From NCBI GenBank assembly GCA_963828195.1, contig CAWHDT010000008.1, forward strand, positions 136,844 through 200,843: a DNA stretch of 64,000 nucleotides. Reading direction: 5' to 3'. Positions within the stretch are counted from its first letter, which is position 1; each line of letters begins with the position of its first letter. The notes beneath the pieces were generated by a model, which ran no database searches, was not told the DNA's origin, and was given only the letters and a program-made list of their open reading frames with translations. A program made the translations under genes and the position numbers. This document shows positions 50,189 through 64,000 of this stretch, in pieces. The stretch comes from Candidatus Bathyarchaeota archaeon (GTDB lineage: Archaea; Thermoproteota; Bathyarchaeia; Bathyarchaeales; Bathycorpusculaceae).

Positions 50189-52408
<2,220 letters not shown>

Positions 52409-54466: not shown

Positions 54467-55675
54467 ATGAAGGTTAAAGTTTGGAAGGTTTTAAGTTTAA
54501 TAATTATTGCGATATTTGCGTTATCAACACTCAGCATGGTTCATGCCGCTGTCACACAACTTCCAACACCACCCACCATATCTAGTGGGGGAGTTGGTGA
54601 ATACTTAGCTTATGATTCTAGCTTAGGAGAGATATACTCAACTAACGGAGAATCAGCCAACACCGTCTCAGTAATATCGGACAGCTCAAGCACCCTTGTT
54701 ACAACCGTAACCGTGGGAGTCGATCCGGTAGGCATAGCTTATGATGCAGGGAAAGGAGAAATGTTCGTAATTAATGATGAAAACTCCGGCTCCTCCGGCG
54801 TCAACAGTACTGTTTCAGTCATACAAGACAGTTCAAACAACGTTCTCGCAACCGTAACAATAGGAATGGGCGCCCAGACAGGCATAGCTTATGACTCCAA
54901 CAAAGGAGAAGTATTCGTAGCTAATGGCGATGGCACCGTTTCCGTCATATCGGACAGCTCAAACACTGTAGTTGCAACCGTGACCGTGGGAAACAGTCCG
55001 TGGGGAGTAGCCTACGATTCCGCAAAAAACGAAGTCTTCGTAACCAATGAGGCAGACAGCTCTGTTTCAGTCATATCGGACAGCAATAACCAAGTGGGTG
55101 CAACCATAACAGGTTCAATTAGCGCTCCTGAAGGCATAGCCTTTGACTCTGCCAAGGACGAGATGTTCCTAGCAGATTGGGATGCCGCTTCTTTCTCCGT
55201 TATATCAGACAAGAACAATGACGTAGTTACAACCGTGGATATGTCGCTTGCAGACGATGCAGCTGGAGACCCCACCGCTGTTGCTTATGATTCCGCCAAA
55301 GGCGAAGTATTTGTAGCATGTCCAGGAGGCAGCCTCCAAGTCATATCGGACAGCAATAACGCCGTGGTTTCATATATCGCCTTGGGCAGCGGCTTAGCTG
55401 CAGAAGGAGTGGCTTATGATTCTGGCAAGGGAGAAACATTTGTAGGCACTTACAACAGCGTGCTTGCCGTCATAGCGGACTCCGCCAGCACATCTTCGCC
55501 CACAGCCACAGCGTCTGAAGCCCCAACTTCAACGCCCTCGTCAACCACTACTTCGTCAGCTACATCTTCGCCAGCGGTACCTGAGTTCAGCAGTGTAGCA
55601 TTCGTTTCCGTCGCGGCTGCTATGGTAGTTGTGACTTTAAGTGCAGTTGCCATTCGCAGGAAAAATCAGAAATAA
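54467..55675 (+). CDS. YncE/YVTN-type beta-propeller surface protein with PEF-CTERM anchor
   Basis: AYDS.KGE.FV repeats, S/T-rich linker, VPEFS + TM helix + RRK; paralog of 4358..5479. Confidence 0.88.
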   Translation: MKVKVWKVLSLIIIAIFALSTLSMVHAAVTQLPTPPTISSGGVGEYLAYDSSLGEIYSTNGESANTVSVISDSSSTLVTTVTVGVDPVGIAYDAGKGEMFVINDENSGSSGVNSTVSVIQDSSNNVLATVTIGMGAQTGIAYDSNKGEVFVANGDGTVSVISDSSNTVVATVTVGNSPWGVAYDSAKNEVFVTNEADSSVSVISDSNNQVGATITGSISAPEGIAFDSAKDEMFLADWDAASFSVISDKNNDVVTTVDMSLADDAAGDPTAVAYDSAKGEVFVACPGGSLQVISDSNNAVVSYIALGSGLAAEGVAYDSGKGETFVGTYNSVLAVIADSASTSSPTATASEAPTSTPSSTTTSSATSSPAVPEFSSVAFVSVAAAMVVVTLSAVAIRRKNQK

Positions 55676-55837
55676 ATCGTTCTGGTCTTTAGACGCGCGA
55701 TGCGCGTTTCTTTTTTTTGTTTATTTTGTATTTTTCTGCAATTGTTGTGCTTATCAAACCTTAATGTACATTTCAGTGCAGATAAGCCTTAAATAATACA
55801 TTCGTGTATGTTTCTGAACTGTACGGAAGCCTGAAAA

Positions 55838-57254
55838 ATGGGGAATCGCCTTTGGCACAAGCACAACAACCCAAACAAAACCATCTAACTCCTTAAAAAT
55901 CATAAAAATCCACCTTACACAACAACCCCTCGAAATATTCTCAAAACTCCAAAAACAATACAAAACCACCTACCTTCTCGAATCAATCGAAGGACCAAAA
56001 AAACTCGCCCAATACTCATTCATCGGCTTTGACCCAAAAATCAACATCCAAACCAAAAACGGCAAAGCCCAAATCAAAAACGAAAAAAACGGTGAAGTAA
56101 CCCTGCAGAAAACGAGCGATCCACTGCAGCTCGTAGAAAGCCTCCTCAAAGCTGATGCAATCGCAAACGGCGAATTCAGATTCGTAGGTGGAGCTGTTGG
56201 CTACATTTCTTATGATGCGGTGCGTTATTGGGAAAAACTGCCTGAGCATAGCCTGGCTGACGTGAATTTTCCCGACTTGGAAATGGGCATATTTGATGAC
56301 GGTTTCATCTTTAACCATGTGCAGCGGCAAGCCTTCTACTATTACCGAAGCGAGAACCGTTTACCCTCAGTTGAAAGCCTACTTAAGCAACCAACCGTTT
56401 CTGAAGAATTATCCTACACTGAGCCTAAGGTGAACACTAAAAAAGAAAACTATGAAAAAGCGGTGGAGAAAGCAAAAGAATACGTGACTGCAGGAGACAT
56501 TTTCCAAGTTGTTTTGTCCAAGCGCTACCAATTCCAAATAGACGGCGAACTGATTCCGTTTTATCAGTCTCTCCGCGCCATCAACCCTTCCCCCTACATG
56601 TACTTTTACAAGTCAGGCGATCGGCAAATCGTTGGTTCCAGCCCAGAAATGCTCGTTCGAGTTGAAAACAGAACCGTGGAAACGTTTCCCATTGCAGGAA
56701 CAAGAGCAGCCGTTGAAGACACCGTTGAAAACAAAAAATTAGCTTGCGAGTTGCTAGCTGATCCGAAAGAGCGGGCTGAACACGTGATGCTTGTAGATTT
56801 GGCACGCAACGACATCGGAAAAATCTCGAAATACGGCAGCGTTCATGTGCCCGAGTTCATGAAAGTGCATCGGTACAGCCATGTGCAACATATTGTTTCG
56901 CAGGTTGTAGGCGAGCTTAGAGAAAACTTGCAAAGCTACGATGCCCTTCGCGCAGTTTTTCCCGCCGGCACGGTTTCCGGGGCACCAAAAGTGCGAGCCA
57001 TGGAAATCATCGACGAGCTTGAACCAGCCAGACGTGGACCCTACGCTGGAGCAGTAGGCTACTTTTCCTACAACGGCAACGCCGACTTTGCCATAACCAT
57101 CCGCACCCTCTTCGCCGACAAGAATCAAGCCTATATTCAAGCCGGCGCCGGAATCGTGGCTGATTCAGTTCCAGAAACAGAATGGTTCGAAACAGACCAC
57201 AAAGCAAAAGCGCTGATGCAGGCGCTTGCGCAATCTGGAGGCGCGAAACCGTGA
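55838..57254 (+). CDS. trpE: Anthranilate synthase component I (start codon out of frame; +1 shift needed near 55840-55855)
   Basis: Frame is open from 55818 with YLLESIEGPKKLAQYSFIGFDP, GGAVGYISYD, NPSPYM, EHVMLVDLARND and GTVSGAPK; no in-frame ATG/GTG/TTG before 56220. Confidence 0.93.
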
Positions 57255-57841
57255 AAGTGGTGGTTATTGACAATTATGATTCGTTCGTTTACAACCTTGT
57301 CCAGTATATAGGCGAACAAGGCGCCGAGGTCATTGTTTACAGAAACGACCAAGTTACACTAGAGCAGTTAACCAAGCTTAAACCTGACAGAATCGTGATT
57401 TCGCCAGGTCCGGGTAATCCTGAAGACGAACGGTACTTTGGCGTCTGCAAAAAAATCCTTCAAACCCTAAGTCCCAGAGTTCCCACTTTAGGCGTCTGCT
57501 TAGGCCACCAAGGAATAATCCATGTCTATGGCGGAAAAGTCATCCATGCCAAAAACCTCATGCATGGAAAAACCTGCACAATAAAACATGACCAAAAAGG
57601 CATCTTCACAGGCGTACGCAACCCCTTTACAGCTACAAGGTACCATTCACTTGCCGGCGAACGATGCTCCATTCCAGCTTGCTTAGAAATAACGGCAGAA
57701 TGCATCGAAGACGGCGAAATCATGGCTGTTCGGCACGTAAAGTTCCCGATTGATGGCGTGCAATTTCATCCTGAATCCATCCTTTGTGAAGACGGCAAAA
57801 TCATCATCAAAAACTTCTTGGATGGGAGGCGCCAGCGGTGA
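57251..57841 (+). CDS. trpG: Anthranilate synthase component II (glutamine amidotransferase)
   Basis: IDNYDSF, SPGPG, GVCLGHQ, QFHPES; GTG overlaps the trpE stop. Confidence 0.97.
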   Translation: MKVVVIDNYDSFVYNLVQYIGEQGAEVIVYRNDQVTLEQLTKLKPDRIVISPGPGNPEDERYFGVCKKILQTLSPRVPTLGVCLGHQGIIHVYGGKVIHAKNLMHGKTCTIKHDQKGIFTGVRNPFTATRYHSLAGERCSIPACLEITAECIEDGEIMAVRHVKFPIDGVQFHPESILCEDGKIIIKNFLDGRRQR

Positions 57842-58899
57842 TTAGGGAAGGTATACAGAAACTTATCGAGGGCTTCAGCCTGACAAGCTGCGAATCAGAT
57901 GAAATCATGAGGGAAGTTATTTCGGGTAAAGCAACCAATTCGCAGACAGCGGCTTTCTTAACTGCGCTGCGGATGAAGGGGGAAGAAGTTGAGGAACTCA
58001 TCGCTTTTGCCTCTGTTATGCGTGAGCACAGCAGCCAAATACACCCCCATGTGCTGGGTCGGCTAGTGGATACTTGCGGGACAGGCGGAGACAAAATAAA
58101 AACCTTCAACGTCAGCACAACCGCAGCCTTTGTCATTGCAGGCGCTGGCGTTGCCGTCGCCAAACATGGAAATAGGGCTGTAACCAGCAAAAGCGGAAGC
58201 GCTGATGTACTGGAACAGCTCGGTCTCAACCTGAACTTGGAGCCAAAATCAGTAGAGGCTATCATTGAGAACGTCGGCATAGGCTTCATGTTTGCTCCAG
58301 CTTTCAATCCAGCCATGAAATACGCGGTTGAGCCGCGGCGCGAAATTGGCATTCGAACAGTATTCAATCTTCTTGGACCCTTAACTAATCCAGCAGGTGC
58401 AAACGCGCAATTACTCGGAGTTTATGACGCTAAACTAACTGCGCCGATGGCTTATGCCCTGCAGCGGCTTGGCTGTGAAGAAGCCATGGTTGTCCACGGA
58501 TTAGATGGCTTAGATGAAGTGTCAACTGTCGGCAAAACCGCCATCGCGCATTTAAGAAATGGCGGAGTCACGGAAATTGAAGTTTCCCCTGAAGATTTTG
58601 GGGTAAAAACCGCCTGCGTAGCCGATTTAAACGTGGCGACGCTTGAAGAAAGCGCTGAGGTTCTATTTCAAATTCTCAGCGGCAACCTCACTCACGGGGA
58701 CCCTAAAATGGAGTTTGTGCTTGTTAACAGTGTTGCAGGAATAATGGTTGGTGGAAAAGCGGTGGATTTTGAAGGCGGGATGGAGATGGCTCGAGAATCA
58801 ATAGACAGCGGTGCTGCTTACAAAAAACTTAAAAATTTAATTAAGGCGTCAGACGGAGATTTATCGAAGCTTGAGGAGTTGGAAGCGAAGTATGAGTGA
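57838..58899 (+). CDS. trpD: Anthranilate phosphoribosyltransferase
   Basis: DTCGTGGD, KHGNR, GSADVLE, LGPLTNP. Confidence 0.98.
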   Translation: MIREGIQKLIEGFSLTSCESDEIMREVISGKATNSQTAAFLTALRMKGEEVEELIAFASVMREHSSQIHPHVLGRLVDTCGTGGDKIKTFNVSTTAAFVIAGAGVAVAKHGNRAVTSKSGSADVLEQLGLNLNLEPKSVEAIIENVGIGFMFAPAFNPAMKYAVEPRREIGIRTVFNLLGPLTNPAGANAQLLGVYDAKLTAPMAYALQRLGCEEAMVVHGLDGLDEVSTVGKTAIAHLRNGGVTEIEVSPEDFGVKTACVADLNVATLEESAEVLFQILSGNLTHGDPKMEFVLVNSVAGIMVGGKAVDFEGGMEMARESIDSGAAYKKLKNLIKASDGDLSKLEELEAKYE

Positions 58900-59671
58900 T
58901 TTTCTTGATGTGCTGGCGCGTGTTGCCCAGATAACAATTGAGAGTGAGTATTATGAAACAGTAAAGAAAGCAGACATCATGCCCATCAGTTTAAAAGCGG
59001 CAATTTTAAGCTGCAAAGCCGTCCCCATTATCGCTGAAATCAAGTCTGCTTCGCCGTCAGCCGGCGTGATTAGAAAAGACGTGGAGCCAGGCGAAATTGC
59101 TGAGGCGATGCAAAAGGGCGGCGCAACAGCCTTATCTGTGTTAACGGAGCCTAAACAGTTCAGCGGCTCTTTAGAAGCGTTAGCCCAAGCCCGAGAAGCG
59201 GTGAATCTGCCCATTCTCATGAAAGATATAATCTTGAGCCCCATACAAATCCAAGCGGCTTCGAAAATGGGCGCCAACGCCGTTTTACTGATTAAGGCGC
59301 TTTTTGACAGAGGCTACAGCGACAAGAGCCTCGACGAAATGATAACAGGAGCGCATATGCTGGGTCTAGAGGTTTTGCTTGAAACCCACACTGAAACAGA
59401 GTTTTGCACGGCAGCCAAAACAAGCGCTGATTTAATAGGCATAAATAACCGCGACCTCGGAACATTAAAAGTAGATTTGAACGTGACAAAAAAAATTCTC
59501 TCAAAAAACGGCGCAAACGGAAAATTGGTTGTTAGCGAAAGCGGAATAAATACTGCCGCAGACATCCGGTTCCTCCGTGAAAGTGGTGCGTGCGCCTTCC
59601 TAGTCGGATCAGCCATAATGTCAAGCGTTAACGTTGAAGAAAAAGTTAAGGAGTTCGTGAACGCAAAATGA
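58892..59671 (+). CDS. trpC: Indole-3-glycerol phosphate synthase
   Basis: [29 protein letters not shown]. Confidence 0.97.
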
Positions 59672-60864
59672 AAGTAAGCAGTTACCCCGTGGACGGAAAA
59701 TACGGGAAATATGGCGGTCGCTTCGTTCCAGAAGTTCTGATGGAGGCGATCAAGGAACTGGAAGAAGCCTACGAGCAAGCGCGCAAAGACCCGACTTTCC
59801 AAAAGGAACTTGATTATTATCTTGCAGAGTTCGTTGGAAGACCCACACCGCTGTATTACGCTGCTAACTTGACGCGTAAGCTGGGCGGCGCCAAAATTTA
59901 CCTTAAACGGGAAGACTTAGCCCACGGCGGAGCACACAAAATAAACAACACAATCGGGCAAGCGCTTCTTGCTAAACGAATGGGAAAAACCCGCGTTATC
60001 GCTGAAACGGGGGCGGGTCAACACGGCGTTGCCACAGCCATTGCATGCGCTGCCCTTGGCTTAAAAGCTGAAGTTTACATGGGCACAGAAGATTGTGAAA
60101 GGCAGCGGCTTAATGTTTTTCGGATGAAACTGTTAAACGCAGAAGTGCATCCTGTGGAAACGGGTTCCAAAACGCTCAAGGACTCCATTAACGAGGCATT
60201 CCGCGATTGGGTAACAAACCTTGAAAGCACCTATTACCTAATCGGTTCAGTTGTTGGTCCCCACCCGTACCCGATGATTGTCCGCGATTTCCAAAGCGTA
60301 ATTGGCAAAGAACTCAAAGCGCAATTCCACAAAAAAGAAGGCAACCTGCCCGATGCGCTTGTTGCTTGTGTAGGCGGCGGAAGCAACGCAATAGGCACCT
60401 TCCACCCCTTCGAAGACGATGCTGACGTCAAATTTTTTGGTGTTGAAGCCGCTGGAGAAGGTTTGGAAACAGGCAAACACGCCGCCTCCCTTGGCGCAGG
60501 AGCAGAAGGCGTCTTCCACGGCATGCTAACCTACGTTCTCCAAGACAGCAATGGACAAATCCAGAACACAAGCAGCATATCTGCGGGTTTAGACTATCCC
60601 GGCGTTGGACCTGAACATTCTTTTCTTAAAACCCTCAAGAGAGCGCAGTACGTTTCAGCCACGGATAAAGAAGCCGTGGACGCTTTTCTTACTTTGTCCC
60701 GAGAGGAGGGTATCTTGCCTGCATTAGAATCCTCGCATGCGGTCGCTTACGCCATGAAACTTGCGCCTCAAATGAAGAAAACCCAGTCGATCGTGGTGAC
60801 ATTGTCGGGGCGGGGAGACAAAGACGTTGAAACTATAGCGGACTACATCGGAGCCAAAATATGA
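59668..60864 (+). CDS. trpB: Tryptophan synthase beta chain (TrpB1 type)
   Basis: [47 protein letters not shown]. Confidence 0.99.
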
Positions 60865-61724
60865 ATACCATAAGCGAGGCGTTCCTAAGAGCAAAGAAGC
60901 AGGGAAACGGCGCACTCATCGGATACATTATGGCTGGAGACCCCAAACCCGAATTAACCGCGAAAATTGCTGACGCCCTGATCAAAGGCGGCGTAGACAT
61001 TCTTGAGTTGGGTTTGCCTTTCTCTGACCCCATCGCTGATGGACCCACTATCCAAGCCGCGGGCGTACGTGCCTTAGCTGCTGGAACCACCCCCATTCAA
61101 GTGCTGGAAATCGCTAAGCAAATACGGCAAAGCCACGACGTGCCAATTGTAATAATGACTTATTATAACCCCGTGTTCAGAATGGGGCTGGAGAAGTTTT
61201 TCGGTTTAGCCAAGGATTGCTTGGTTGATGGCGTCATCGTTCCCGACTTACCGGTTGAAGAAGCAGGCGACCACAAGAAAGCCGCAAGCAAGTTCGGCAT
61301 CGACACGATCTTTCTAGCTGCACCTTCAACTTCTGATGAACGACTTGCAAAAATAGTTGAGTGTTCATCAGGTTTTCTGTATCTTGTTTCCCACTTCGGC
61401 GTCACAGGCGCACAGGCAAAACTGGAAGACTCAACTATTGAGCTTGTCAAGCGTGTTTTGCCATTTACTTCGGGCAAGATTCCGTTGGCGGTTGGGTTTG
61501 GCGTCTCAAAGCCCGAGCACGTAAAACGCATCATTGAGGCAGGGGCTGACGGCGTAATCGTCGGAAGCGCTTTCGTTAACCTAGTTAAAACGCATCAGGA
61601 AACCACCGATGTTCTCCTCAAAAAGCTGCAAGCAACGGCTTCTGAACTTAAAAAAGCAACAAAAACTCATCGAATAGCCTTAGCAATCCATAAAGAGGCA
61701 AGCGTTGAAGAAATCGCAAAATAA
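60861..61724 (+). CDS. trpA: Tryptophan synthase alpha chain (with a short C-terminal extension)
   Basis: [35 protein letters not shown]. Confidence 0.98.
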
Positions 61725-62354
61725 TCGGAAAAAAACTACTCAACCATCCTAAGAGCCACAAATCCGCTTAGCATCAGGAGTTTAATTTATTATCAGCTTG
61801 AACGGACCGCTCCTAAAGGAAAAGAACTCCGTTACTACGCACTAACCTTCAGCGGCTTAACCATGTACCTTAGCAAGAAAATAACCCTCAACGAAATAAG
61901 AGCGGTTGCAAAAGCGCATGAGGATAGGCTCTTGGTTTTTAAGAAATGGGACAAGTTTGTCACTGCAGGATGCGAGGAAGAAATCTTTTTGTAGTTAAGG
62001 AACGCATTAAGATTTGAGCGGCAACGAGACATAATTCAATACAGCATCGATTTCTTAATTTCGTTTGGACGAGTTCCGGAAAAGGAACCTGAAAGTAGTC
62101 CGCTGGATTTTTTTGATTCAGCCGTTTTAGGCTTAATTTTTATGGACCAGCCAATTGAGTATGTGAAGGAAAGCCTGCCTGAACAATGGAAAGTGTTGCA
62201 GAAGATTTGGCCAGTAATAGAGAAAGATTATGAGCTAAGAAAGAAACGTGACGAGTTCTTGAGCTATTTGGAAAGAGAGCATGATGAAGGTCTCAAAGCT
62301 GTTGCAGAATGGCAAAAATACATAAAGCAAGAAAAAACCAATCCAGACAAATAA
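61668..62354 (+). pseudogene. Remnant of a wHTH-containing gene, in frame with trpA, with two internal stops
   Basis: [30 protein letters not shown]...GKELRYYALTFSGL...IFL*LRN...MDQPIE; stops at 61722 and 61992. Confidence 0.65.
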
Positions 62355-63242
62355 TCCGTATGACGGCAATTCCGCCGAAGAAAATCATGAAGCTTTTTTG
62401 AGAGCTTCATTTAGCGGTTTTTAGTGGTTTTCCCCTATTTTCAGCGAGAAAAGGACAAAGTAGAATGCAACGATTCTTTCATGTAATTTGAAGACCCTTG
62501 GTTTCTGAGAAAAGCTCACAAGCAGATGGGACAATTTTTTTATTTCAAGGGAGCAACACCCTGCTTAGTGCAAAAAGGTGCAAAAGTTCTGTAACGATTT
62601 TTTAGAAGATGGTTCTTCAGCTATTTTCAAAAAAATTTAGGGTCAAGGGTTGTGGTTGCTGAGAAAATCTGCTTGGTTGTTCTGTAGACTTTTCATCGAG
62701 CACTTGATTAATAGAGTCTTCTTAAAATTGTGGGCGAACTAAGTTTTAAAATAAGCAATTATCAACGTGGTGTCTTCACCCATGTGACAGTTCCCTAAGG
62801 TAGCTTTTCTCGGTCAAGAGGCGTCATAATGAAGTTTTACGCAAAAAAAACGGAGAAAAAAGAGACCTACTCAATATCAGCATTTCACCATAAAGGGCCT
62901 CTCCTTTCTTCGCTTGTGAAGGGCTTGAAAATGAGCTGAAATGCGCTGAAAAAAGAAGACCCTTAGCTCTTATTATTTGATGTCTACAAATTGCTTGATC
63001 TGACGCTATTGATTTTCTGAGAAGCTAGCTTGAAGCATCTCTATATTAGGTCTTCGAACATGTTGTCGGATTCTTCTGTTAGCGGTTATCCCGGCATTCC
63101 CGGCTCATGCCCTATAACTAATCATAGATCGCACATACTTTGATGCAGGATTCCATTTCTTTGGAAAGTCTTAACTATTTACTTCGCCCATATGCTACGG
63201 GTTTCCAGTTATAATGAATCCCGTCTGTGGGAGTTGAGATGA

Positions 63243-64000
63243 GTGCCTGTTGAAATCAGCTTAGAAATGTACGCTGAAAAGCCTGTCGTGTTGCCCTTTT
63301 TTACGGGGCATATTGCTAGGGGTTTGTTGTTGCATTTTGTTAGGCTGGTTGATCCTTCCGCTTCGGGGTTGCTGCATGAGCTGAATGTGTCTAAGCCGTA
63401 CAGTGTGACGCCTTTACGTTTTAGAAGCAGCAGCCGCAATGAGGAGGGGTATGTTTTGGAACCCCAATTTCCCTGCAAAGTCGGTTTCAGGTTTTTGAAA
63501 GACGAGTACTCAACTTATCTGCTTAACTTCTTTCAGAAACAGAATACTGCCTTAATTTTTGACACCACTTTCCAGATTGCCTCAATGAGCATAAACTGCA
63601 AGACCTATGCCGATTTGGAAAAGGAAGCACAAGCGGTTAATGAGCTTACGCTGGATTTTAGAACGCCCACATATCTGGCGAATCTAAACAGCAATTACCA
63701 CTGGATGTTTCCTGACCCTGTAAAAGTGTTCTGTAGTTTGATGCGGTGCTGGAACCAGTTCAGCGACGAACGGCGCTTCACAAAAGAAGAATACGTTGCC
63801 TACAAGGACTGGCTGGGTAAAAACGTGGGCGTGAGCAGATACGAGTTGCAGACACGGCTGGCAGTCATGCGAAACAAGAAAGTCACAGGCTTCTCAGGCA
63901 CCATCACCTACGAGTTAGGCGACAAAGAAAACCCCTATAACAAAACCACCCACATGCTTGCACACTACGCAGAATACGCCAACATAGGCGGAAACAAAAC
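63243..64000 (+). CDS. cas6: CRISPR-associated endoribonuclease Cas6 (partial, runs off the window edge; not in the ORF track)
   Basis: GTG 63243: MPVEISLEM...GHIARGLLL...KPYSVTPL...LDFRTPT...FPDPVKVF.SL...W...GFSGTITY...AEYANIGGNK, ending at the start of the Gly-rich loop. Confidence 0.88.
   Translation, partial: MPVEISLEMYAEKPVVLPFFTGHIARGLLLHFVRLVDPSASGLLHELNVSKPYSVTPLRFRSSSRNEEGYVLEPQFPCKVGFRFLKDEYSTYLLNFFQKQNTALIFDTTFQIASMSINCKTYADLEKEAQAVNELTLDFRTPTYLANLNSNYHWMFPDPVKVFCSLMRCWNQFSDERRFTKEEYVAYKDWLGKNVGVSRYELQTRLAVMRNKKVTGFSGTITYELGDKENPYNKTTHMLAHYAEYANIGGNK

Follow-up and report, generated by a model that had tools for sequence, protein, structure and literature searches.

A conserved out-of-frame start suggests that archaeal trpE is expressed through a tryptophan-sensing +1 ribosomal frameshift

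The stretch of DNA studied here (the window, 64,000 nucleotides (nt) in full) lies on contig C8 of a Candidatus Bathyarchaeota genome, a metagenome bin of 2.83 Mb in 9 contigs from a soil archaeon of the Bathyarchaeia. It carries trpE, the gene for component I of anthranilate synthase, whose reading frame has no usable start codon and is entered, we propose, by a programmed +1 ribosomal frameshift that senses tryptophan (Trp) at the sequence CUU_U_GGC. Taken as a whole, we consider this reading probable. That trpE requires a +1 shift at this very site appears highly likely from the comparison of relatives, and that the shift acts as a tryptophan sensor, a proposal that rests on an invariant Trp codon and on the function of the gene, seems fairly likely. 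We also lean towards regarding the arrangement as an ancient, phylum-wide sensor built on a 'hungry' Trp codon, found in Bathyarchaeia and other Thermoproteota, probably including ammonia oxidisers, and driving the whole trp operon. The cassette, its upstream signals and the trp genes all lie on the forward (+) strand of the window.

The trpE frame is open from 55818, directly after a TGA (55815-55817), and is closed by the TGA at 57252-57254, and its earliest ATG, GTG or TTG is the GTG at 56220, residue 135 of that frame. Its translation matches the archaeal TrpE model TIGR01820 at 542.9 bits (cut-off 512.05, E-value 8.1e-163) over frame residues 37-470 and covers profile positions 1-448 of 449, a full-length match above the curated cut-off. 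Since this match begins at residue 37, a protein started at 56220 would lack some 98 conserved residues at its N-terminus. The ATG at 55838 opens a short reading frame instead (55838-55888), which lies at -1 relative to trpE and reads ATG GGG AAT CGC CTT TGG C...; it has 16 sense codons, a single Trp codon among them, encodes the peptide MGNRLWHKHNNPNKTI and ends at the TAA at 55886-55888. Within it, GGGG (55840-55843) stands 6 nt 5' of CTT (55850-55852), which is followed by TGG (55853-55855), and the trpE-frame TTT (55851-55853) overlaps both codons. The lack of a usable trpE start and the out-of-frame ATG had been reported in an initial annotation made from the window's letters, and we confirmed all of these sequence facts.

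This ATG looks like an ordinary site of initiation. A Shine-Dalgarno (SD) sequence, GGAAG (55825-55829), precedes it with an 8-nt spacer, and across this genome the spacing from GGAGG to the start codon peaks at 7-9 nt; the usual spacing marks ATG 55838 as a normal SD-led start. Among 140 distinct Bathyarchaeia sequences a G/A-rich SD peak lies at -14 to -10, and distant families have plain GGAGG or GGAG. The 3' end of the 16S ribosomal RNA (rRNA) of this genome reads ...GGATCACCTCCT. No second cassette was found among the 21 matches to the site pattern in this genome: trpE alone pairs a short ATG frame (16 codons) with a long +1 frame (471 codons). A separate list holds 32 long frames of the genome whose first start codon lies at least 40 codons in; trpE, at 134, heads it, and no other frame in it makes a convincing case.

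In the mechanism that we propose, a ribosome would start at the SD-led ATG 55838, read Met-Gly-Asn-Arg-Leu and come to hold CUU in its peptidyl (P) site, with UGG, the sole Trp codon of the short frame, presented in the aminoacyl (A) site. When charged transfer RNA (tRNA) for Trp is plentiful, UGG would be read and translation would stop ten codons on at the TAA, with no TrpE made. When charged tRNA-Trp is scarce, the A site would stay empty and the peptidyl-tRNA-Leu (anticodon GAG) would re-pair one base forward on UUU, pushed by GGGG..AUC, which would be paired to the 3' tail of 16S rRNA 1-3 nt too close for a relaxed fit. At the shift site CTT_T_GG_C (55850-55856), the P site would thereby move from CTT (Leu) to TTT and the A site from TGG (Trp) to GGC (Gly), and T55853 would be a pairing partner twice yet be skipped as a codon base after the slip. 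The ribosome would read GGC next and continue through the post-shift part of trpE (55854-57254, from that GGC to the TGA, as delimited by translation and TIGR01820), and via stop/start overlaps probably on to trpG, D, C, B and A. The predicted shifted TrpE has 471 residues, 466 of them from the trpE frame, and the first five codons of the short frame would form its N-terminus.

Operating in this way, the cassette would gauge the charging of tRNA-Trp and turn on the trp operon when charging falls, which is the useful direction. The sensor logic rests on the invariance of the Trp codon in the A site together with the position of trpE as the first gene of a fully overlapping trp operon. We infer that ribosomes do slip here, that pairing with rRNA stimulates the slip in archaea and that its rate is set by tryptophan supply. 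The basic event has a precedent, there as an error, since the available portions of two papers report that tryptophan shortage leads to frameshifting at Trp codons in human cells (PMC13751296, PMC8942854).

The evidence that carries this reading comes from relatives, whose trpE 5' ends the initial annotation had suggested aligning in search of a conserved out-of-frame ATG followed by CTT-TGG. In a first set, the trpE-frame protein was matched in 28 of 41 genomes searched, including 23 of the 24 other species of the genus; the records of the closest relatives are Candidatus Bathyarchaeota or Bathyarchaeia metagenome bins. At 29 of the 30 loci of this set (two pairs of which represent one place each), A-ATG-(G/A)GG-NAT-NNN-NTT-TGG stands 5' of trpE with trpE one base out of frame, and at many of them the trpE frame has a TGA overlapping the ATG where the window has TGG. 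Further sets comprised 80 named contigs, 401 genomes of the class (178 with a match, 70 loci read) and a phylum set of 401 genomes (178 with a match), from which 50 regions were taken and 49 were trpE 5' ends.

A locus was scored as carrying the cassette if an in-frame TTTGG lay 5' of the conserved core and a start codon in the -1 frame preceded it by at most 15 codons with no intervening stop. By this one rule, 229 trpE 5' ends divide into 210 with the cassette, 14 without it, 3 at contig ends and 2 without an alignment, so that the out-of-frame start and NTT-TGG are indeed conserved. The 210 cassette loci represent 182 distinct sequences, which span 24 numbered families and no fewer than two classes of the phylum. 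When distinct loci are counted, the rule scores 182 of 196 in the trpE frame, as against 3 and 1 in the other two frames, and it scores 0 both in shuffled sequence and in an interval inside the gene. The cassette arrangement is therefore far above chance. Moreover, 116 of the 182 distinct cassettes have no trpE-frame start between the last stop of that frame and TTT, and 84 have none before the conserved core.

Sixteen of the cassette families belong to the Bathyarchaeia (f1, f4, f7, f10, f11, f12, f14, f17, f19, f26, f27, f30, f31, f32, f35 and f37) and eight lie outside them in the same phylum (f40, f45, f46, f47, f51, f52, f57 and f62). Outside the Bathyarchaeia the distance from the start codon to NTT ranges from 2 to 8 codons, and the constant core throughout is an SD-like stretch, a short spacer and NTT TGG. 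In family f52 (L216, L217 and L200) the ATG lies two codons before CTT and the short frame holds two Trp codons, as in M-P-R-L-W-G-M-C-L-W-Q-stop. Plain SD-led in-frame starts occur in f24 (4 of 4 read), f34 (1), f44 (4), f77 (1), f83 (1) and in one f51 genome.

The anatomy of the cassette was derived from the 140 distinct Bathyarchaeia sequences, collected with a stricter pattern that 167 of 178 loci matched. The start codon is ATG in 134, GTG in 5 and TTG in 1, the three codons that the collecting pattern admitted. Codon 2 is GGG in 105, AGG in 34 and GGC in 1, codon 3 is NAT in 136 and the last base of codon 4 is C or T in 136. The fifth codon, which would occupy the P site, is CTT in 89, GTT in 26, ATT in 24 and TTT in 1, and a C follows TGG in 105, making GGC, the commonest glycine codon of this genome (41%). 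Across all 182 distinct cassettes, NTT T and TGG are invariant, and no other slow codon ever takes the place of UGG. TTC replaces TTT in none of the cassettes, as against a TTT:TTC ratio of 50:50 for phenylalanine in the genome, and a T before TTT, giving a run of four U, occurs in 1 of 140. The short frame ends after 7-34 codons in 139 of 140, and 0-28 codons past TGG in 181 of 182. The slip from CTT to TTT just before the sole Trp codon, as first suggested for the window, is thus matched by a start, a G-rich stretch, an NTT and a TGG that are kept in 182 distinct sequences.

Stop codons place the frame change more closely. The TGA overlapping the ATG is the last trpE-frame stop in 39 of the 182 distinct cassettes, which leaves that frame open for just 3 codons before TTT. 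In 14 distinct sequences, from families f11 (of the same order as the window), f51 and f62 plus the locus L108, a trpE-frame stop stands directly 5' of TTT (...(C/T)TA GTT TGG, with TAG in the trpE frame), which excludes trpE-frame translation 5' of TTT in those lineages. In 3 distinct sequences the short frame stops directly after TGG, as in CTT TGG TAA at L192. As the frame has to change somewhere between the last stop of the trpE frame and the stop of the short frame, the change is confined to the NTT_TGG region, which upholds the position given in the initial annotation. If the cassettes are homologous, the ribosome would change frame while NTT occupies the P site and TGG the A site, or else at the next codon. 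At the level of sequence, the comparison establishes that a frame change is needed, where it lies, which signals around it are conserved and that these signals are complementary to 16S rRNA.

Only two loci within cassette-bearing groups lack TTTGG, and as natural controls they agree with this reading, namely L011 (genome G006), which reads ATG AGG AAC CAC CTT GAC..., and L036, which reads ...CTT TGC AGC...; in both, one base of TTTGG is missing and the ATG frame runs straight into trpE. At L011 other, otherwise invariant bases are changed too, which is to be expected once nothing depends on the signal. The sequence of L036 is that of a long-read bin, so that the G it lacks may have been lost through an error.

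The comparison also supports the G-rich stretch that the initial annotation had proposed as an upstream helper. The candidate internal SD-like stimulator (55840-55847, made up of GGGG at 55840-55843 and ATC at 55845-55847) is predicted to pair with the 3' tail of 16S rRNA through GGG (55840-55842) and AUC (55845-55847), leaving 55843-55844 unpaired. The unpaired state would explain the free variation at 55844, with A55845 and T55846 nearly invariant. For the window the predicted duplex comes to -6.7 kcal/mol, and over the 140 sequences it averages -7.6 kcal/mol, as against -2.2 and -3.3 kcal/mol in controls. Within the 14 nt before NTT, pairing with the 16S tail reaches -4.9 kcal/mol or stronger in 182 of 182 cassettes (median -7.1), whereas 897 ordinary in-frame NTT-TGG pairs in open reading frames (ORFs) of the genome have a median of -3.3 kcal/mol and only 7.7% of them reach -7.1. 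The spacer from the SD-like 4-mer to NTT is 6 nt in 116 cassettes, 5 nt in 51, 4 nt in 7 and 7 nt in 4, with no 4-mer in 4 (n = 182). A spacer of 4-6 nt (174 of 182) is 1-3 nt tighter than the 7-9 nt of initiation. In bacterial prfB, the gene for release factor 2 (RF2), such a too-close SD-like geometry is held to push the ribosome forward.

The tRNAs that the slip would need are encoded: genes for tRNA-Leu(GAG), tRNA-Ile(GAT), tRNA-Val(GAC) and tRNA-Phe(GAA) are present in the genome. It is plausible that tRNAs with a GAN anticodon, which read NUU, would after a +1 move still pair A35 with U and G34 with U. Such re-pairing requires U at 55851-55853, which fits the absence of TTC. Tryptophan is the rarest residue in this genome, at 11.3 per 1000 codons.

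Signals of other kinds were sought around the site. The 60 nt after it fold at a mean of only -3.3 kcal/mol, and 40 sampled sequences gave no consensus structure that might serve as a downstream stimulator. These 60 nt are poor in G (A 44%, C 30%, G 10%, T 17% over the 140 sequences). More broadly, the first ~50 trpE codons after the site (55857-56000; loci L001-L180) are G-poor, A/C-rich and essentially unfolded, and they encode a linker rich in Thr, Gln, Lys and Pro that is hypervariable in length and sequence. Such a G-poor linker may serve to prevent structure, or additional SD-like stretches, from arising at the site. An Rfam scan of 55650-56050 at E-values up to 1 returned at most a chance match to a baculovirus element (E-value 0.76) and no T-box or described switch, and no terminator-like site was found 3' of 55719 within 55600-56100.

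Several observations weigh against the proposed frameshift or against parts of it. The variable bases 55841, 55844, 55847, 55850 and 55856 are the third positions of the trpE-frame codons G-I-A/V-F-G, which looks like coding constraint on a stretch that our model leaves untranslated in that frame; the predicted rRNA duplex, with its unpaired base and its helix end, accounts post hoc for two of these bases and does not fully explain the match. Some trpE-frame start lies upstream of TTT in 66 of the 182 distinct cassettes, at a position that is not conserved, and in some lineages ATG or GTG is the trpE-frame codon directly before TTT. Family f40 keeps a trpE-frame GTG: all 15 genomes read (L194, L195 and L202-L214) have ATG GGT G(G/A)N NNN NTT TGG, with a TATA-like box about 30 nt 5' of the out-of-frame ATG. 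The f40 transcript may be leaderless, with initiation either at a 5' AUG, which would need the shift, or at the GUG, which would not, and in f40-like groups direct or leaderless initiation may add to shifting or replace it. In f11, however, the same GTG is followed by a stop two codons later, which suggests that GGTG there is probably an SD-like element.

Other points of this kind concern the ribosome and the genome at large. Ordinary genes do not avoid NTT-TGG pairs, which occur in them as often as expected or more often; this means that shifting either needs the stimulator or is tolerated. That SD pairing acts on elongating archaeal ribosomes is a step taken by analogy, and archaea carry the protein Mbf1. 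In yeast, according to the available part of one study, Mbf1 suppresses frameshifting by stalled ribosomes (PMC6301793). The gene for tRNA-Trp is not among the 46 tRNA genes found by aragorn in a list that lacks tRNA-Tyr and others too; the runs with and without introns gave 36 and 46 genes, an incomplete inventory. Finally, metatranscriptome contigs X9 and X13 fall on 55932-56088 (90-95% likeness) and on the low-complexity stretch 55706-55737, outside the shift site.

The alternative that best withstands these data, though we regard it as unlikely, accepts the +1 shift at CUU_U_GGC as real and takes it to be constitutive, giving a fixed low output of TrpE or persisting as a 'frozen accident' with no response to tryptophan. 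UGG is read by a single tRNA and specifies the rarest residue, and it may be nothing but a reliably slow codon; the SD-like stimulator could also act alone, as it does in prfB. Against this, no other slow codon is seen in its place in the 182 cassettes, and the gene is the first of the Trp pathway. The plain starts of some families and of L011 further show that the cassette is dispensable for TrpE function. Its retention in 24 families in spite of this suggests a selected regulatory role.

It is quite improbable that no shift occurs at all and that TrpE starts in its own frame, at a conventional or near-cognate codon (the ATC at 55845, or an ATG or GTG elsewhere), with the ATG frame acting as a Trp-containing regulatory upstream ORF. 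Overlapping upstream ORFs regulated by stalling are common in bacteria, and the ATG or GTG codons before TTT, above all the conserved GTG of f40, would suit such a start. However, the window and the 84 cassettes mentioned above have no ATG, GTG or TTG in the trpE frame before the conserved core, and in the 14 stop-bearing sequences the stop follows the ATH or GTG codon. The SD-like stretch, moreover, lies 1-4 nt from those codons rather than the usual 7-9 nt, and a ribosome stalled at UGG would cover the start and lower TrpE under starvation, which is the wrong direction.

Very improbable, in our view, is a change of frame right after the start codon, in which AUG is followed by a skipped purine and then GGA AUC GCC UUU GGC, so that TrpE begins MGIAFG and TGG merely arises from coding for Phe-Gly. 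The third-position pattern fits trpE-frame codons GGN ATH GYN GGN, and substitutions like ATC to GTT are conservative when read that way. GGG (13% of Gly codons) and AGG (15% of Arg codons) are minor codons, and no tRNA with a CCC or CCU anticodon is in the tRNA list, which is itself incomplete. Against this, the stretch is untranslatable in the trpE frame of the 14 sequences with a stop directly 5' of TTT, the fixed TTT and the near-absence of a preceding T are at odds with simple coding for Phe, and the TrpE of L011 lacks GIAFG. Nor is there a known mechanism that moves an initiator tRNA forward from AUG.

The initial annotation had named as a strong alternative an error of assembly or sequencing that put a surplus G into GGGG (55840-55843), with a true start ATG GGA ATC GCC TTT GGC, and the comparison refutes it: dropping one G does restore the frame and the assembly is a metagenome bin in 9 contigs, but the out-of-frame arrangement recurs in 182 distinct sequences from many projects, with the extra base present in more than 180 independently assembled species, 34 of the 140 Bathyarchaeia sequences have A instead of G (ATG AGG) and no homopolymer to miscount, the predicted in-frame ATG GGA ATC form occurs at none of the loci examined, and a 196-base DNA contig of a public run (X1) agrees with 55771-55966 at every base and without gaps, although that run could be of the very sample from which this genome came. 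As for other possible frame errors, the adjacent ORF pairs scanned in the window have different Pfam domains or no Pfam match and none are two halves of one family; only the pairs with Pfam matches can be called separate genes.

Among known systems, the Trp-sensing frameshift proposed for trpE recalls the +1 frameshift of bacterial prfB, whose consensus is AGG GGG UAU CUU UGA C. Both have a short zero frame and a long conserved ORF in the +1 frame, a CUU_U at which tRNA-Leu re-pairs on UUU, a slow A site, a C after the site and a close upstream SD-like G-rich stretch, and in both sensor and effector are one. They differ in that the A-site codon of trpE is the sense codon UGG, whereas that of prfB is the stop codon UGA read by its own product RF2; the trpE cassette would sense charged tRNA-Trp instead of its own product. 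In trpE the spacer measures 5-6 nt as against 3 nt, CUU, AUU and GUU can each serve as the P-site codon, and the host is an archaeon. The yeast element Ty1 makes the same CUU to UUN slip during a wait at a scarce-tRNA codon: in the available part of a 2016 review of frameshifting, peptidyl-tRNA-Leu at CUU_AGG_C slips while awaiting a scarce tRNA, at a rate that follows aminoacyl-tRNA supply (PMC5009743). In Ty1, however, the tRNA is always scarce and the shift serves to fix the Gag:Pol ratio, whereas the hungry codon of trpE specifies the amino acid made by the downstream operon. The trpE cassette is a member of neither the prfB nor the Ty1 class, though it works alike. Hungry-codon shifts of Escherichia coli under starvation are errors, unlike the regulatory use proposed here, and the same review states, in the part available, that 'no examples are known' of utilised starvation-linked frameshift products (PMC5009743).

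In its logic the cassette resembles trpL attenuation, in which a short leader ORF with Trp codons precedes trpE, its translation speed reports the charging of tRNA-Trp and starvation turns the operon on; the quantity sensed would be the same as in attenuation and T-box systems. In contrast to trpL, there are no terminator and antiterminator hairpins, the leader runs into trpE itself, a switch of frame takes the place of read-through at a terminator, and there is one Trp codon (two in f52) instead of a tandem pair. Eukaryotic antizyme also uses a metabolite-related signal to set a +1 shift needed for the full protein and is very widely conserved, but it relies on a stop codon, a downstream pseudoknot and polyamines, where trpE has a sense codon and an upstream stimulator. 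A single programmed frameshift has been demonstrated in a cellular archaeal gene, according to the available part of a 2021 review, namely the -1 shift of fucA1 in Saccharolobus solfataricus (PMC8211752). Like trpE, fucA1 is split over two frames and expressed by recoding; unlike it, the shift is -1, on A_AAA_AAT inside the gene, in few species and with no known regulatory logic, whereas that of trpE would be +1, at the very start of the gene and conserved across a phylum. The available part of a 2013 survey of conserved frame transitions has no mention of anthranilate or tryptophan (PMC3711429). In agreement with the initial annotation, which knew of no such device, we found no archaeal trpE frameshift or Trp-sensing frameshift in the literature searched, with subscription-only papers and supplements outside the search.

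The surroundings of the cassette are those of a typical operon. A predicted archaeal promoter (55781-55797) consists of GATAAGCC followed by the TATA-like TTAAATAAT (55789-55797), about 49 nt 5' of the ATG; the GATAAGCC-TTAAATAAT string is also found upstream of the cassette in relatives of the genus and looks like a promoter by analogy with the general architecture of archaeal promoters. A hairpin followed by a T-run (55691-55719) forms a terminator-like site, presumably functional in an archaeon, that would separate the upstream gene from the trpE promoter. Downstream, trpG (57251-57841) starts with a GTG that overlaps the trpE stop (GTGA, 57251-57254) and has GGAGG 9 nt upstream; its match to TIGR00566 (224 bits) begins at residue 26 of a longer ORF. 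It is followed by trpD (57838-58899), trpC (58871 or 58892 to 59671), trpB (59668-60864) and trpA (60861-61724), with matches to TIGR01245, NF001377, TIGR00263 and TIGR00262, respectively. The order is thus trpE-G-D-C-B-A, and each start overlaps the preceding stop (57251-61724). In a search limited to the operon (57251-61724, with the rest of the genome not searched), trpF was not found.

Other genes of the window were noted in passing. The gene upstream of the cassette (54467-55675) encodes a secreted-looking beta-propeller with YVTN repeats (TIGR02276, E-value 1.5e-19), a Ser/Thr-rich linker and a C-terminal PEF...hydrophobic...RRK tail, which we take to resemble an archaeosortase sorting signal. 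Further upstream, 50210-52408 encodes a 732-residue protein with two peroxidase domains (PF00141, E-value 3.8e-72), i.e., a KatG-type catalase-peroxidase, in a lineage that is usually described as anaerobic. At 63243-63998, an ORF that runs off the end of the window has a weak match to Cas6 (TIGR01877, 47.9 bits, below the cut-off of 58.65), and no CRISPR-like (clustered regularly interspaced short palindromic repeats) array was found in 61700-64000.

To our knowledge, the control of amino-acid synthesis is poorly known in most archaea, and we know of no ribosome-based amino-acid sensor described in them. Programmed +1 frameshifting is itself well known; what would be new here is its regulatory use and a site built on a Trp sense codon. 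If our reading is correct, trpE would provide the first +1 programmed frameshift known from a cellular gene of an archaeon and the first natural regulatory use of starvation-induced frameshifting, an archaeal counterpart of bacterial attenuation in which a shortage of one charged tRNA would directly bring about the frame change that makes the pathway of the missing amino acid. It would also mean that an SD-like sequence inside a reading frame can steer elongating archaeal ribosomes, as happens with bacterial ribosomes at prfB. The cassette is a portable 19 bases, which makes the long-standing question of whether hungry-codon frameshifting is put to use directly testable. Finally, a required shift would explain the truncated or start-less trpE of about 180 species, which bears on how these genomes are annotated automatically and their metabolism reconstructed, and the Bathyarchaeia and their relatives could otherwise be misscored as tryptophan auxotrophs.

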